Source: Escherichia coli (lineage in GTDB: Bacteria > Pseudomonadota > Gammaproteobacteria > Enterobacterales > Enterobacteriaceae). Taken from it: a stretch of DNA of 64,000 nucleotides. The number at the start of each line of letters is the position of its first letter. Position 1 is the first letter of the stretch. Below are positions 7,331-10,963 of the stretch, in pieces. The notes beneath the pieces are model-generated. The model worked only from the letters and a program-made list of their open reading frames with translations. It made no database searches and was not told where the DNA came from. The DNA lies in the NCBI RefSeq assembly GCF_030384885.1, contig NZ_CP128613.1; one strand, 5' to 3'. Made by a program: the position numbers and the translations under genes.

Positions 7331-7339
7331 AAGTATTTT

Positions 7340-7459
7340 ATGAAGGAGCAACAGCATCGATTTTTATTTTGGAAAATAAATACGGCATACTCAACCTATT
7401 GGAGCCTGAACAATCCGGTGACTTCTGCGCTAATCGGGGACGTTTATAAGCACATATAA
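7340..7459 (+). CDS. Hypothetical 39-aa small ORF immediately after ybcM (possibly a ylcH-like small protein)
   Basis: ATG 7340 to TAA 7457-7459, MKEQQHRFLFWKINTAYSTYWSLNNPVTSALIGDVYKHI; below the ORF-track size cut-off; no independent support. Confidence 0.2.
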   Translation: MKEQQHRFLFWKINTAYSTYWSLNNPVTSALIGDVYKHI

Positions 7460-8019
7460 TTGATACTATCTTCCTCCATCACAATTTCAGAAATGCACGT
7501 GTGATTTTTTTGCATCCGGCGTTTGGACTATGTGGAGTTCAAGAGTGGGAAAGTTACAAGAGGTTGAGGGGATAATTAAAGGGATGCTTATGACATTAGA
7601 TATCCGGATAGGTACGGATATCGTTGTTATTAAATCTAGTTTATACGTTAAGATGCAGCTACAGCAGAAATTACCACTGTTAATTTTTTCATCGTGAGCC
7701 CTTTTATTTGTACTATTATTTAAAAATGATGTCACTGCACTACAAATACTCATCTAATCAATGAGATTATTTCAAGATGTAAGTTTTAGTTTCTCATTTA
7801 AATTGTGAAGCAGATCCCTCCTTTTATCTGAACTGTTTCTATTGTACACAATGCATGACTATTTTGTGAACGAATATAAATTTGGTAGTCAAATTATATT
7901 AAAGGTTGTTATTTATGATTGACTCATAATTTATTTTTTTAATTTAAATAACCTAATAATAACCATGGAGATTATTTGCATGATATTTGTTTAGACTTGT
8001 TAATGTAATTGAGGTGATT

Positions 8020-8694
8020 TTATTTAATACGCAATATAGCGCCGCTTGATATTAGTTCTATTTTTTTTTGCGTAAGATAGATGAGACAAACTGAGACGCA
8101 TAATGGTTTGCAAGGCTCTAATACTTTGATGTTGAGGATGTGATGGGGCATGTACGTGCATAGTACAATGATGTCCATGCCGGTGTAGATAATCTCCAGG
8201 CTTATCCGGTGCGCCGTAAAACCCCGTCCTTCAGGGCGGGGATATAAGGCGCGGTTTTCCACCTGACCAGGTGTTTGCTGTTGTTCAATGTATTGGCGGA
8301 TGACGGACATTGGCGCACCTCCGCAGCTACTGGCAAAATTGCCAGGACTCCACAAAACGCCTTTGTAGTAATACCTGACTGTAATATCTGGTCGATCTCG
8401 TCGCAGTAACCTACCCGATACGCCTTTGAGGCTGTTTACCAGACTGGATATCGCCAGTTTGGGAGGATAGTTAATTAACAAATGGACGTGATCTGGTTCG
8501 CCATCCATTTCAACCAGTTCAGCTTCAAAATCAGCACATACATTTGAAAAGTAAGTGCGTAGTTTTTCTGTCGCGTCATGGTCAAAAATCTGGCGTCGGT
8601 ATTTGGTGACAAAGACCAGGTGAACATGCATCAGGAAAACACAATGCCTTCCACGCCGGATATCGGTTTCTTTTTTCACAGACCAAAGTATCAT
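8020..8694 (-). CDS. tnpA: IS200/IS605-family HUH (Y1) transposase TnpA; conserved core is about aa 1-145, and the ORF continues a further ~80 codons with no stop
   Basis: HUH motif (DHVHLLINYPP), ...HVHLVFVTKYRRQ... and catalytic-Tyr region ...GGAPMSVIRQYIEQQQ align with IS608/IS200 TnpA; similarity ends near nt 8275. Confidence 0.7.
   Translation of the reverse strand: MILWSVKKETDIRRGRHCVFLMHVHLVFVTKYRRQIFDHDATEKLRTYFSNVCADFEAELVEMDGEPDHVHLLINYPPKLAISSLVNSLKGVSGRLLRRDRPDITVRYYYKGVLWSPGNFASSCGGAPMSVIRQYIEQQQTPGQVENRALYPRPEGRGFTAHRISLEIIYTGMDIIVLCTYMPHHILNIKVLEPCKPLCVSVCLIYLTQKKIELISSGAILRIK
8222..8241 (+). repeat. Left-end subterminal imperfect palindrome (hairpin) of the IS200/IS605 element
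   Basis: ccccgtcc-ttca-gggcgggg: 8-bp stem with one G:T position and a TTCA loop. Confidence 0.6.
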
Positions 8695-8701
8695 TTGACC
8701 T

Positions 8702-9910
8702 GTGAAACGATTACAGGCATTTAAATTCCAGTTAAGACCCGGTGGTCAACAGGAGTGTGAAATGAGGCGCTTCGCAGGCGCATGTCGTTTCGTTTTCAAT
8801 CGTGCTCTGGCGCTTCAGAATGAGAATCATAAGGCCGGTAAGAAATACATCCCTTACGGGAAAATGGCTTCCTGGCTGGTTGAGTGGAAAAATGCCACTG
8901 AAACGCAATGGCTTAAAGATTCGCCCTCACAGCCATTGCAACAGTCACTGAAAGACCTTGAGCGGGCTTACAAAAACTTCTTCCAGAAGCGGGCTGCTTT
9001 TCCCCGATTCAAAAAGCGGGGACAGAATGATGCATTCCACTACCCGCAGGGCGTTAAGCTCGATCAGGAAAACAGCCGTATTTTTCTGCCGAAACTTGGC
9101 TGGATGCGCTACCGGAATAGCCGTCAGGTCACGGGTGTTGTGAAAAATGTCACTGTCAGCCAGTCCTGCGGTAAGTGGTACATCAGTATTCAGACAGAAA
9201 GTGAAGTATCAACTCCGGTTCATCCTTCAGCATCAATGGTCGGGCTGGATGCTGGCGTGGCTAAACTCGCCACGCTGTCAGATGGCACAGTCTTTAAGCC
9301 TGTAAACAGTTTTCAGAAAAACCAGAAGACGCTGGCGAGACTTCAGCGACAGTTAAGCCGCAAGGTCGAATTCAGCAATAACTGGCAGAAGCAGAAACGC
9401 AAAATACAGCGACTGCATTCCCGTATCGCAAATATCCACAGGGACTACCTTCACAAAGTCACAACGACCGTCAGCAAAAACCACGCAATGATAGTCATTG
9501 AGGATTTGAAGGTCAGCAACATGTCAAAGTCAGCAGCGGGTACGGTCAGCCAGCCGGGGCGCAATGTCCGGGCAAAATCAGGTTTAAACCGTTCGATACT
9601 GGATCAGGGCTGGTATGAAATGCGCCGCCAGCTTGAGTACAAGCAGCTCTGGCGTGGCGGTCAGGTGCTTGCTGTTCCGCCAGCGTACACAAGCCAGCGT
9701 TGCGCGTGCTGTGGTCATACAGCGAAAGAAAATCGCCTGTCACAAAGTAAATTCAGATGCCAGGTATGTGGATATACAGCGAACGCCGATGTAAACGGCG
9801 CTCGTAACATTTTAGCGGCGGGGCACGCCGTTCTTGCCTGTGGAGAGATGGTGCAGTCAGGCCGCCCGTTGAAGCAGGAACCCACCGAAATGATTCAGGC
9901 GACAGCCTGA
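8702..9910 (+). CDS. tnpB: IS200/IS605-family TnpB (OrfB; RuvC-like RNA-guided nuclease family), apparently intact
   Basis: 402-aa ORF, GTG start at 8702. N-terminus [13 protein letters not shown].. resembles ISDra2 TnpB; RuvC-I (MVGLDAG), RuvC-II (IVIEDLKV), Cys4 zinc finger (CACCGH...CQVCGY) and RuvC-III ([10 protein letters not shown]) all present. Confidence 0.85.
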
Positions 9911-9970
9911 ACGTAGCAGGGATCCACGTCCTTCAGGGCGTGGAGGATGTCAACAAACAGGTTGAATTAA
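9790..9970 (+). ncRNA. Predicted TnpB-associated omega-RNA (right-end RNA): scaffold over tnpB 3' end plus right-end hairpin, guide from flanking DNA
   Basis: Inferred from the established architecture of TnpB elements; no sequence-level RNA model was fitted and the extent is approximate. Confidence 0.3.
9924..9943 (+). repeat. Right-end subterminal imperfect palindrome (hairpin) of the IS200/IS605 element
   Basis: ccacgtcc-ttca-gggcgtgg: same stem/loop layout as the left-end hairpin, including the G:T position; 14 nt after the tnpB stop. Confidence 0.6.
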
Positions 9971-10621
9971 CTCCGCGCCCTGGTTTTTGACATTACCCAC
10001 CGCGCGCGACACAGGGTGCCAGGTGAACTGGTTTGCTGGAACACAGCCACTGGCAGCAATTTCAGAGGCTTCTTTACCGCTAATCTCTTGCCGCATCCAT
10101 TCCCGCGCAGCTTCTGGCGACAGTACCAGCGGGCGGCGGTCATGAATATCTACCAGACCCTGGTCTGCTGCTGCAGTGACAATTAAAAATCCTTCGGCTT
10201 CGTCACCACGCTCAAACGGTGTGCTACCTATCGCGGCTATAAAAACAGGTTGTCCATCAGCGCGATAGATAAAATAAGGCTGTTTTTTGTCGCCTTCTTT
10301 TTTCCACTCAAACCAGCCATCGGCAAAACAGATTGCCCGACCATGTTGCCAGAGCGGTTTAAACATACGACTGGTTGCCGCAGTTTCTACGCGGGCGTTA
10401 ATCAGCGGCGGTTTATCCCACCATCCGGGAGCATATCCCCAGAAAACCGGATCCAGATGAAGGTGTTCATCACGTTCACTGAGCAGAAGAACTTTGGTTC
10501 CCGGCGCGACGTTGTATCTGCCAATAGGTTCGGGATCGTAGGGAATATCGCGTTCAATATCTTCCGCGAGAAGCGCAAGGTAATCTTCACGCGTTTGGGA
10601 TTGGGTAAAGCGTCCACACAT
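9950..10621 (-). CDS. yedK: SOS-response-associated peptidase (abasic-site processing protein) YedK
   Basis: 223-aa ORF starting MCGRFTQSQTREDYLALLAEDIERDIPYDPEP... (SRAP family, catalytic Cys2); C-terminus ...AELIQPVC sits at the IS right end. Confidence 0.88.
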   Translation of the reverse strand: MCGRFTQSQTREDYLALLAEDIERDIPYDPEPIGRYNVAPGTKVLLLSERDEHLHLDPVFWGYAPGWWDKPPLINARVETAATSRMFKPLWQHGRAICFADGWFEWKKEGDKKQPYFIYRADGQPVFIAAIGSTPFERGDEAEGFLIVTAAADQGLVDIHDRRPLVLSPEAAREWMRQEISGKEASEIAASGCVPANQFTWHPVSRAVGNVKNQGAELIQPVC

Positions 10622-10697
10622 AGCAACCTCCTGAGATCATACTGAAAAGAATAGGAGAGGGGGCGGGTAAAATCTATGTGATACAGAGGTAACGATG

Positions 10698-10722
10698 TTC
10701 CCGCTGTTGGCCACAGCGGGAA
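10698..10722. other. Perfect 9-bp inverted repeat (hairpin) between yedF and yedK
   Basis: ttcccgctg-ttggcca-cagcgggaa; no adjacent T-run, so not a canonical terminator. Confidence 0.3.
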
Positions 10723-10729
10723 TGAGGGA

Positions 10730-10963
10730 TTACTTCTGAATTAAATAACGAATGGTCGGCCCGTCTTGCTGAATATCCAGCACCGTATAGCCGTGATTAC
10801 GCGCATCCAGTGGAATATTATTGATCGACTGCGGACAGTCGCTCACCACTTCCAGGATCTCACCTTTTTTTAACTGCGGCATCGCCTCAAGGGTTGCAAC
10901 TGCCGGATAAGGGCAGGGTTCACCCACCATATCAAGGCGGTAATCAGGAACGATATTTTTCAT
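10730..10963 (-). CDS. yedF: TusA-like sulfurtransferase-family protein YedF
   Basis: 77-aa ORF MKNIVPDYRLDMVGEPCPYPAVATLEAM... with the CPxP motif. Confidence 0.88.
   Translation of the reverse strand: MKNIVPDYRLDMVGEPCPYPAVATLEAMPQLKKGEILEVVSDCPQSINNIPLDARNHGYTVLDIQQDGPTIRYLIQK

Follow-up and report, generated by a model that had tools for sequence, protein, structure and literature searches.

The 64,000-nucleotide stretch of Escherichia coli DNA analysed here (contig NZ_CP128613.1 of assembly GCF_030384885.1, called the window below) carries at 8206–9953 on its plus strand a full-length copy of the insertion sequence (IS) IS609, a 1748-bp member of the IS200/IS605 family, the right end of which abuts the convergent gene yedK. 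The top strand of the element is the plus strand of the window, and the element was found at one place in the record, that is, as a single copy in the strain. An earlier note on this DNA had pointed out that the tnpB stop codon (9908–9910), a right-end hairpin (9924–9943), and the minus-strand stop codon of yedK (9950–9952) lie close together and that YedK is 223 amino acids (aa) long and ends in ...AELIQPVC; all these coordinates hold. The features from which the main argument is built are the following.

8020–8694, minus strand: tnpA, the gene of a Y1/HUH transposase (Pfam Y1_Tnp, E = 8e-40, profile positions 1–121 of 121).
8202–8205, plus strand: TTAT, the target site or transposon-adjacent motif (TAM), directly 5′ of the left end at 5/5 sites compared, in agreement with the empty-site alignment.
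8222–8241, plus strand: left-end subterminal hairpin, CCCCGTCC-TTCA-GGGCGGGG, forming direct-repeat family D2 with the right-end hairpin.
8702–9910, plus strand: tnpB (insQ), an intact gene for an RNA-guided endonuclease of 402 aa recognized by Pfam, with its TGA stop at 9908–9910.
9924–9943, plus strand: right-end subterminal hairpin, CCACGTCC-TTCA-GGGCGTGG, with 8 pairs, one of them G.T.
9950–9953, plus strand: TCAA, the terminal tetranucleotide (transposon-encoded motif, TEM; right-end cleavage site), placed by site comparison and the empty site.
9950–10621, minus strand: yedK, encoding the SRAP abasic-site crosslinking protein of 223 aa that ends in ...GAELIQPVC (Pfam SRAP).

The ends of the element were determined by the comparison of five independent sites, namely yedK, ydcL/ydcO of K-12, a TetR-like pseudogene of O157, gltX/yfeD, and yfaY/yfaV. 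At all of them the left end reads TTAT|CCGGTGCGCC... and the right end ...GGAGGATGTCAA|, the terminus at yedK being ...GGATGTCAA with its last base at 9953, and the length is 1748 bp across these sites (1749 bp in one frameshifted copy). IS copies elsewhere in E. coli match the window through 9953, while IS-free yedK loci match it from 9954, and the host flank differs right after TCAA in every homologue compared; Salmonella and Klebsiella plasmid relatives likewise finish with ...GGAGGATGTCAA and their flanks diverge directly after it. The five-site comparison and an empty-site allele having identical flanks on both sides place the IS/host junction exactly at 9953|9954. The element has no terminal inverted repeats (CCGGTG... 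versus ...GTCAA) and carries subterminal imperfect palindromes at both ends, the right-end hairpin being a 90% direct copy of the left-end one and showing a compensatory A-T to C-G change in the Klebsiella homologues. No target duplication was detected, since the three verified empty sites (yedK, ydcO, and yfeD) equal the left flank plus the right flank with nothing gained or lost, as expected for the IS200/IS605 family. The Y1 TnpA, the TnpB, the subterminal hairpins, the tetranucleotide target used without duplication, and the length and identity of IS609 all agree with membership in this family. RefSeq names the TnpA of the intact O157 homologue "IS609 family transposase," and the synonymous divergence (dS) of tnpB from that O157 copy is 0.042. 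A published IS table (PMC6963479) contains IS609 entries of 1748 bp with an ATAA flank, in agreement with the window element, and records a truncated IS609 "within the yedK gene" in a different strain. IS609, the mechanism by which it moves, and its occurrence at yedK are already known or annotated.

The effect of the insertion on yedK was deduced from strain ATCC 25922, which has the same island end left of yedK and no IS. Its empty site equals the left and right flanks of the window joined exactly (...GTAGATAATCTCCAGGCTTAT|CAAACAGGTTGAATTAAC...; other excerpts of the same junction read ...CTCCAGGCTTAT|CAAACAGG and ...AATCTCCAGGCTTAT|CAAACAGGTTGAAT). Read on the strand of yedK, DNA without the IS has CCT GTT TGA TAA, i.e., ...P V stop stop, giving a protein of 222 aa, and the IS-bearing sequence is CCT GTT TG|T TGA, where the old stop codon has been split between its second and third bases. 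The TG of the hybrid Cys codon comes from the old stop, its T is complementary to the last base of the IS, the A at 9953, and the new TGA stop is the complement of IS bases 9950–9952; at the other end of the element, the last T of TTAT (8205) is, as complement, the third base of the original stop codon. Three IS-free alleles end with CCT GTT TGA and five IS-bearing alleles with CCT GTT TGT TGA (...QPVC). The 222-aa form ending in ...IQPV, which the earlier note had given for K-12, was found at the loci of a K-12-like strain, BY63, and ATCC 25922, and the match to PDB YedK ends at V222. The proposal of that note that the IS end had remodelled the 3′-end of yedK was thereby confirmed, as the empty-site alignment shows the stop to be wholly IS-derived and the Cys codon to be hybrid (TG from the host, T from the IS), and the alignment of IS-free yedK 3′-ends that it had suggested led to the exact junction given above. 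As read from the bases themselves, the relation between IS end and stop codon is deterministic rather than statistical, and chance is no issue.

The following course of events is proposed. IS609 would have moved in single-stranded form and inserted 3′ of a TTAT that overlapped the tandem stop codons of yedK (TGA-TAA). Insertion adds no duplicated bases and the end of IS609 is TCAA, hence at the right junction the host triplets [TTA][T|CA] were turned into [TCA][A|CA]. By this change the old TGA became TGT (Cys), an in-frame TGA arose from the IS-borne TCA, and YedK acquired one residue and an IS-derived 3′ untranslated region. The identity of the element, its boundaries, the empty site, the codon remodelling, and the population frequency described below are established. 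The full account, which adds to the entry of IS609 into the yedK stop and the codon remodelling the consequences of TnpB and its ω-RNA, is in our judgment highly probable.

A similar exchange of one stop codon for another was seen at further IS609 sites. In K-12, the coding sequence (CDS) of ydcO ends on the IS-borne TCA, exactly 40 nt past the insQ stop (locus L014, 4249–4256). The empty ydcL/ydcO site built in silico was present with at least 80% coverage in 2043 genomes, with 100% identity in the top matches including O157:H7 PV15-279, where ydcO (L022) ends on the last T of TTAT (T|TA = TAA) and is 1212 nt long versus 1215 nt in K-12. YdcO has 404 aa in K-12 versus 403 aa at the verified empty site, the added residue being Tyr, and by this comparison the last residue of K-12 YdcO (Tyr; the third base of its codon) and the stop come from IS609. 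At the gltX/yfeD site (L015, 2317–2322), the yfeD CDS also ends on the TCA of the IS; in the verified empty site (L023) the TTA of TTAT is the stop, and the IS swaps TAA for TGA and changes the last codon synonymously from GCA to GCT. The target at the yfeD site sits in the T-tract of the gltX terminator. The three genes yedK, ydcO, and yfeD are all in the phase [TTA][T|NN]. Read as complements, the target (ATAA) and the end of IS609 (TTGA) each hold a stop codon in the same phase, therefore the right junction restores termination at once or one codon later. Insertions into a stop-overlapping TTAT of convergent genes would be nearly scarless and hence would persist. The IS609 copies at seven chromosomal sites, few in number and gathered unsystematically, were distributed as follows.

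Stop codon of a convergent gene at the right end, 3 sites: yedK, ydcO, yfeD.
Left end interrupting a co-directional gene in its 3′-end, 2 sites: yfaY, yoaG-like DUF1869.
Mid-gene insertion, 2 sites: yajI/DUF3251, TetR-like gene.

According to a rough ORF-based proxy for the background, stop-overlap geometry applies to 9 of the 618 TTAT sites of the window (1.5%), or to about 4% (9/~208) of those lying outside long open reading frames (ORFs) or overlapping a stop. From these sequence counts, old IS609 copies look enriched at convergent gene ends, for which the survivorship of harmless insertions is the simplest explanation. At the left end of the element, the yoaG-like DUF1869 gene (L025, 1459–1647) and yfaY (L016, 1–586) are annotated 14–42 nt into the IS, consequently their C-terminus and stop codon are IS-derived there.

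The two genes of the element are divergent, with starts 7 bp apart (tnpA from 8694 down to 8020, tnpB at 8702–9910), and are in very different states. Regular tnpA comprises 143 codons (8266–8694) with the HVH (HUH) and QYIE motifs present. In the window its stop codon has been lost (TAG to CAG, 8263–8265), which adds 81 codons running through the left end into host DNA and gives a product of 224 aa, and the conserved Tyr of the WSPGYF motif is replaced by Asn in the window copy alone when compared with seven others; tnpA is also flagged incomplete by PGAP. Since the stop is lost and the conserved Tyr substituted, the window copy is probably immobile. Stop loss and/or an internal stop was found in 7/8 tnpA copies, only that of O157 being intact, and the stop loss is common to IS609 copies at several unrelated sites. 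The 402-aa tnpB ORF is whole in 8/8 copies, with dN/dS values of 0.14–0.42, and its product matches OrfB_IS605 (7e-33), Cas12f1-like_TNB (2e-24), and HTH_OrfB_IS605 (1.5e-13) of Pfam as well as the ISDra2 TnpB structures (E = 1e-53), with the four Zn-finger Cys residues conserved. Residues D183, E267, and D363 (positions counted from motif starts) align with the Asp/Glu/Asp of ISDra2, i.e., with D191, E278, and D361, which we take to be the RuvC triad. The element is therefore predicted still to encode a nuclease-competent TnpB.

The mechanism described for the family involves the TAM, the TEM, and the donor joint, composed of the TAM and the right-flank sequence, which is cleaved by TnpB (Meers et al.). 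In ISDra2 of Deinococcus radiodurans, the ω-RNA derives from the 3′-end of tnpB and the right end and consists of a 116-nt scaffold and a 16-nt guide from the flank, and the TAM equals the transposon target (PMC10097598). Transcripts overlapping the 3′-end of tnpB have been reported from RNA-seq of E. coli K-12, and the UUCA tetraloop motif of sotRNA and HgcC has been described (PMC4615843); these transcripts were the only RNA-level evidence at insQ/ydcO or yedK that a literature search gave. The last 120 nt of the K-12 IS609 are 100% identical to the window. Two features of an ω-RNA were predicted for the window.

9836–9953, plus strand: predicted ω-RNA (reRNA/sotRNA) scaffold, composed of the tnpB 3′-end and the right end, proposed on the ISDra2 analogy, sub-threshold Rfam matches, and the fold.
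9954–9969, plus strand: predicted guide, ~16 nt taken from the adjoining host DNA, CAAACAGGTTGAATTA (= CAAACAGGUUGAAUUA), positioned according to the family mechanism.

The Rfam families of tnpB-3′-end RNAs that match are HgcC (9847–9966), sot0042 (9783–9944), and RAGATH-18 (9837–9880). The scaffold and guide together (9780–9973) fold with z = −3.4, a consensus fold of the scaffold from five homologues contains four compensatory pairs, and the UUCA tetraloop of the right-end hairpin matches the sotRNA/HgcC motif. The predicted guide is perfectly complementary to the yedK mRNA ...UUA AUU CAA CCU GUU UG, i.e., to codons 218–223 (...LIQPV + TG), and in IS-free alleles TTAT followed by CAAACAGGTTGAATTA is the predicted TnpB target (donor joint). 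By the known mechanism, tnpB would make an ω-RNA from 9836–9953 carrying a ~16-nt guide that corresponds to 9954–9969, and this guide, antisense to the final yedK codons, would direct cleavage of IS-free alleles (TTAT + CAAACAGGTTGAATTA). The antisense transcription suggested in the earlier note is thus a reasonable consequence of TnpB biology; a short built-in antisense segment over the yedK 3′-end, probably of some tens of nucleotides, is expected, while long read-through across the whole yedK is not supported. Production and length of the ω-RNA, the activity of TnpB, and a possible influence on the expression of yedK are inferred.

Folding of the plus-strand RNA across the junction predicted one further structure.

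9933–9988, plus strand: predicted junction stem-loop, in which 9933–9945 pairs with 9971–9983 (13 bp) and an inner stem forms between 9950–9954 and 9961–9965, followed by UUUUU at 9984–9988.

In this structure the 3′ arm of the right-end hairpin (9933–9945) is paired with yedK codons, and it can form only where the right end of the IS lies next to yedK. It has a minimum free energy between −35.9 and −36.5 kcal/mol (z from −4.5 to −5.0); the empty site, which lacks it, has a fold of −15.9 kcal/mol (z = −0.4), and the ydcO and yfeD junctions do not form it and keep the ordinary right-end hairpin. When each of the 618 TTAT sites of the window was joined in turn to the IS end, 5% folded as stably, and the junction hairpin may be coincidental. 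A scan for short-loop intrinsic terminators found none between tnpB and yedK. The predicted hairpin, which has a large loop and lies outside the reach of the scanning tool, is terminator-like; according to this prediction, transcription leaving the element would end some 35 nt inside yedK. The yedK mRNA has the mirror-image counterpart, a stem of 7 + 4 pairs around the stop codon with no U-tract after it.

Several observations weigh against the ω-RNA part of the account. None of the Rfam families reached its gathering threshold (19–25 bits versus 45–88 bits), which indicates resemblance, not membership. On the plus strand no sigma-70-like promoter was predicted within 8000–10800, in a scan that is uninformative for weak promoters. 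A literature search on the activity and TAM of IS609 TnpB found only the purification of this protein in one screen. The predicted junction hairpin would tie up the guide as well as one arm of the hairpin of the right end. Finally, about 435 of the 1102 genomes bearing the junction (an approximate count obtained by the subtraction 1102 − 667) appear to carry a 100-bp deletion (9842–9941), so the ω-RNA is not kept everywhere. Lying between TGGAG direct repeats, this deletion takes away the stop codon of tnpB, the greater part of the predicted scaffold, and the 5′ half of the right-end hairpin stem, after which (L006) the tnpB ORF overlaps yedK.

The junction between the right end and yedK was found in 1102/5426 complete E. 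coli genomes, including E. coli W. A deletion derivative is present in another 1111/5426, including ST131 (strain 5506; L017, 3501–4170), where the IS609 remnant corresponds to window 8323–8984 only. The 1.2-kb deletion of the derivative (8985–10184) took the larger part of tnpB together with the right end and the final ~230 nt of yedK and left yedK, joined at 10185 onward, as a C-terminally truncated pseudogene, which agrees with the published truncated IS609 in yedK (PMC6963479). Altogether, about 40% of the complete genomes have or had IS609 at yedK. The gene itself is mosaic, with 77 variable sites per 668 nt among 11 sequences (window 9954–10621 and loci L001, L002, L005–L007, and L009–L013), and the yedK haplotypes that carry the IS are very different, whereas all six IS-bearing loci examined have a single left flank in common, the end of the ybcM island. 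The yedK alleles of the window and MB30, the latter being K-12-like (dS 0.07), differ by a dS of 0.20, and the tnpB copies by 0.03–0.05. This pattern is explained most simply by an old, single insertion and later recombination.

That IS609 reached the yedK site many times, as a hotspot or by RNA-guided homing, rather than once, would also fit the strong mosaicism of IS-bearing yedK alleles as opposed to the near-uniform tnpB, and TnpB-stimulated recombination is a known route by which the IS is copied into empty alleles (Meers et al.). However, the common left flank of all six IS-bearing loci speaks for one event, and the mosaic is accounted for just as well by a single insertion with ordinary recombination inside yedK, situated in the fli region, which is prone to recombination; repeated arrival is therefore an unlikely alternative, though one that deserves to be kept in view. 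A different objection concerns the stop codon, as ...PVC-stop could be a natural yedK allele and the IS could merely lie downstream of an already 223-aa gene. An IS-free allele ending in ...PVC does exist, the CUVET20-1667 type (CCT GTC TGT TAA), which occurs in at least 334 genomes at ≥99% identity, but it uses TAA, differs from the empty site at three positions (TGA-TAA has become TGT-TAA), and is followed by the sequence usual downstream of yedK without the IS, so the ...PVC alleles lacking the IS differ from the window exactly where identity would have spoken against the remodelling. The TGA of the window and the T of its TGT lie within the last four bases of IS609, which were defined at four other loci. 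In the matched empty site TGA directly follows GTT, and the idea of a natural allele is refuted for the window by the empty-site alignment. We consider this explanation hardly credible. The CUVET20-1667-type allele was also considered as an excision footprint and rejected, since three point changes are all that separates it from the empty site.

The remaining alternatives assign the element a role in the host. According to one, the tnpB/ω-RNA module has been co-opted, and an antisense RNA or an RNA-guided protein regulates yedK. The intactness of tnpB under purifying selection while tnpA decayed in 7/8 copies, the perfect complementarity of the guide to the yedK 3′-end, the age and spread of the insertion (1102 genomes, on divergent yedK haplotypes), and the lack of a canonical short-loop intrinsic terminator between tnpB and yedK are all compatible with such a role. 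The same pattern of intact tnpB and decayed tnpA is, however, equal at other IS609 sites and so not specific to yedK, the scaffold has been deleted in ~40% of the junction-bearing genomes, and tnpB, the right end, and the yedK 3′-end are gone in the further 1111. Moreover, TnpB needs the TTAT TAM, in place of which GTCAA stands beside its own flank, a guide bound by TnpB is not free for pairing with mRNA, and the predicted hairpin with its U5 tract would end read-through after about 35 nt. Co-option is thus very improbable. A broader idea, that IS609 is specialized for or preferentially survives at the stops of convergent genes, with the host protein preserved and the guide permanently antisense, and may have been retained at yedK, together with an intact tnpB under selective constraint, as a regulator or addiction module rather than as a passenger, appears to us quite improbable as well. 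The reading preferred here remains a single old insertion of IS609 into the yedK stop codon.

The protein that bears the added residue is otherwise a regular YedK. It matches Pfam SRAP (E = 9e-52, residues 1–211) and starts with MCGRF, in accordance with the catalytic Cys2 at the processed N-terminus in this family, and its residues 1–222 align end-to-end with PDB E. coli YedK, with six substitutions versus the best chain, 6kcq_B. The crystallized chains carry 5–6 further residues after V222, presumably affinity tags. These constructs and the CUVET20-1667-type alleles show that a C-terminal Cys on YedK is tolerated. In the CUVET20-1667 allele (L009, 1495–1510) the TTAT target is changed to TTAA and another change lies at position 3 of the predicted protospacer, therefore this allele should resist both IS609 insertion and the predicted TnpB cleavage. 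The S1-IND allele has two changes in the predicted seed and ends in ...QPI.

Among known systems, the closest counterpart is the ydcL/ydcO copy of K-12 (insQ, formerly ydcM), which shares with the window element the length of 1748 bp, the TTAT on the left, the ...GGATGTCAA terminus on the right, and the split stop codon of a convergent gene, but there the split stop is TAA (T|TA), the added residue is Tyr, no hairpin spans the junction, and tnpA has an internal stop besides the stop loss. The right end of IS608 of Helicobacter pylori, the element on which the mechanism of IS200/IS605 transposition is modelled, also finishes with TCAA, and its target is TTAC where that of IS609 is TTAT here. 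IS609 differs from IS608 in the divergent orientation of its tnpA and tnpB. Both elements have a Y1 HUH TnpA and subterminal hairpins and insert 3′ of a tetranucleotide without duplication, with scarless excision, and the H. pylori TnpB was inactive in interference assays (Meers et al.). ISDra2 TnpB is the closest natural homologue with a solved structure, and its RuvC triad and Zn-finger are conserved in IS609; the TAM of ISDra2 is TTGAT versus the inferred TTAT for IS609, and the scaffolds are not alignable in sequence. The RNAs sotRNA, HgcC, and RAGATH-18 occupy the same place relative to tnpB as the predicted IS609 RNA and share the hairpin with a UUCA tetraloop, with the sub-threshold matches extending over 9783–9966.

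The insertion at yedK is ordinary and largely harmless, and it is present in about one-fifth of the sequenced E. coli. Both in the 223-aa YedK, present in ~20% of E. coli, and in the 404-aa YdcO of K-12, the last residue and the stop codon stem from IS609. Another 20% of the complete genomes, ST131 among them, have a yedK cut short by a deletion beginning within the IS, therefore this abasic-site protection protein of SRAP/HMCES type appears dispensable in a major pathogenic lineage and in much of the species. The exchange between TTAT and TCAA is a corollary of IS200/IS605 chemistry and explains old IS609 copies at the ends of convergent genes. The stop-for-stop rule and the frequency of yedK loss are useful points for annotation rather than discoveries, and the current understanding of transposition and TnpB is unchanged by these findings.

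The window is 100% identical to E. coli 2013C-4282 both at 9850–10250 and at 8100–8750, and the gene order in that strain is fliE-emrE-ybcL-ybcM-tnpA-insQ-yedK-yedF-yedE. As ybcL and ybcM are genes of DLP12 in K-12, a chromosomal rearrangement was considered and rejected, because fliE-emrE-ybcL-ybcM-IS609-yedK is the usual order of an island variant occurring in many strains. An AT-rich stretch of ~875 bp without an annotated gene (7331–8205) separates ybcM from IS609; in ATCC 25922 an ompC-like porin gene lies between ybcM and yedK, and the window has no such annotation. Outside E. coli, in an IS609-like element with 84% identity on a Klebsiella pneumoniae plasmid (L018, 654–659), 3 nt separate the right end from the stop codon of a convergently oriented HTH gene, which adjoins a RelE/ParE toxin gene.

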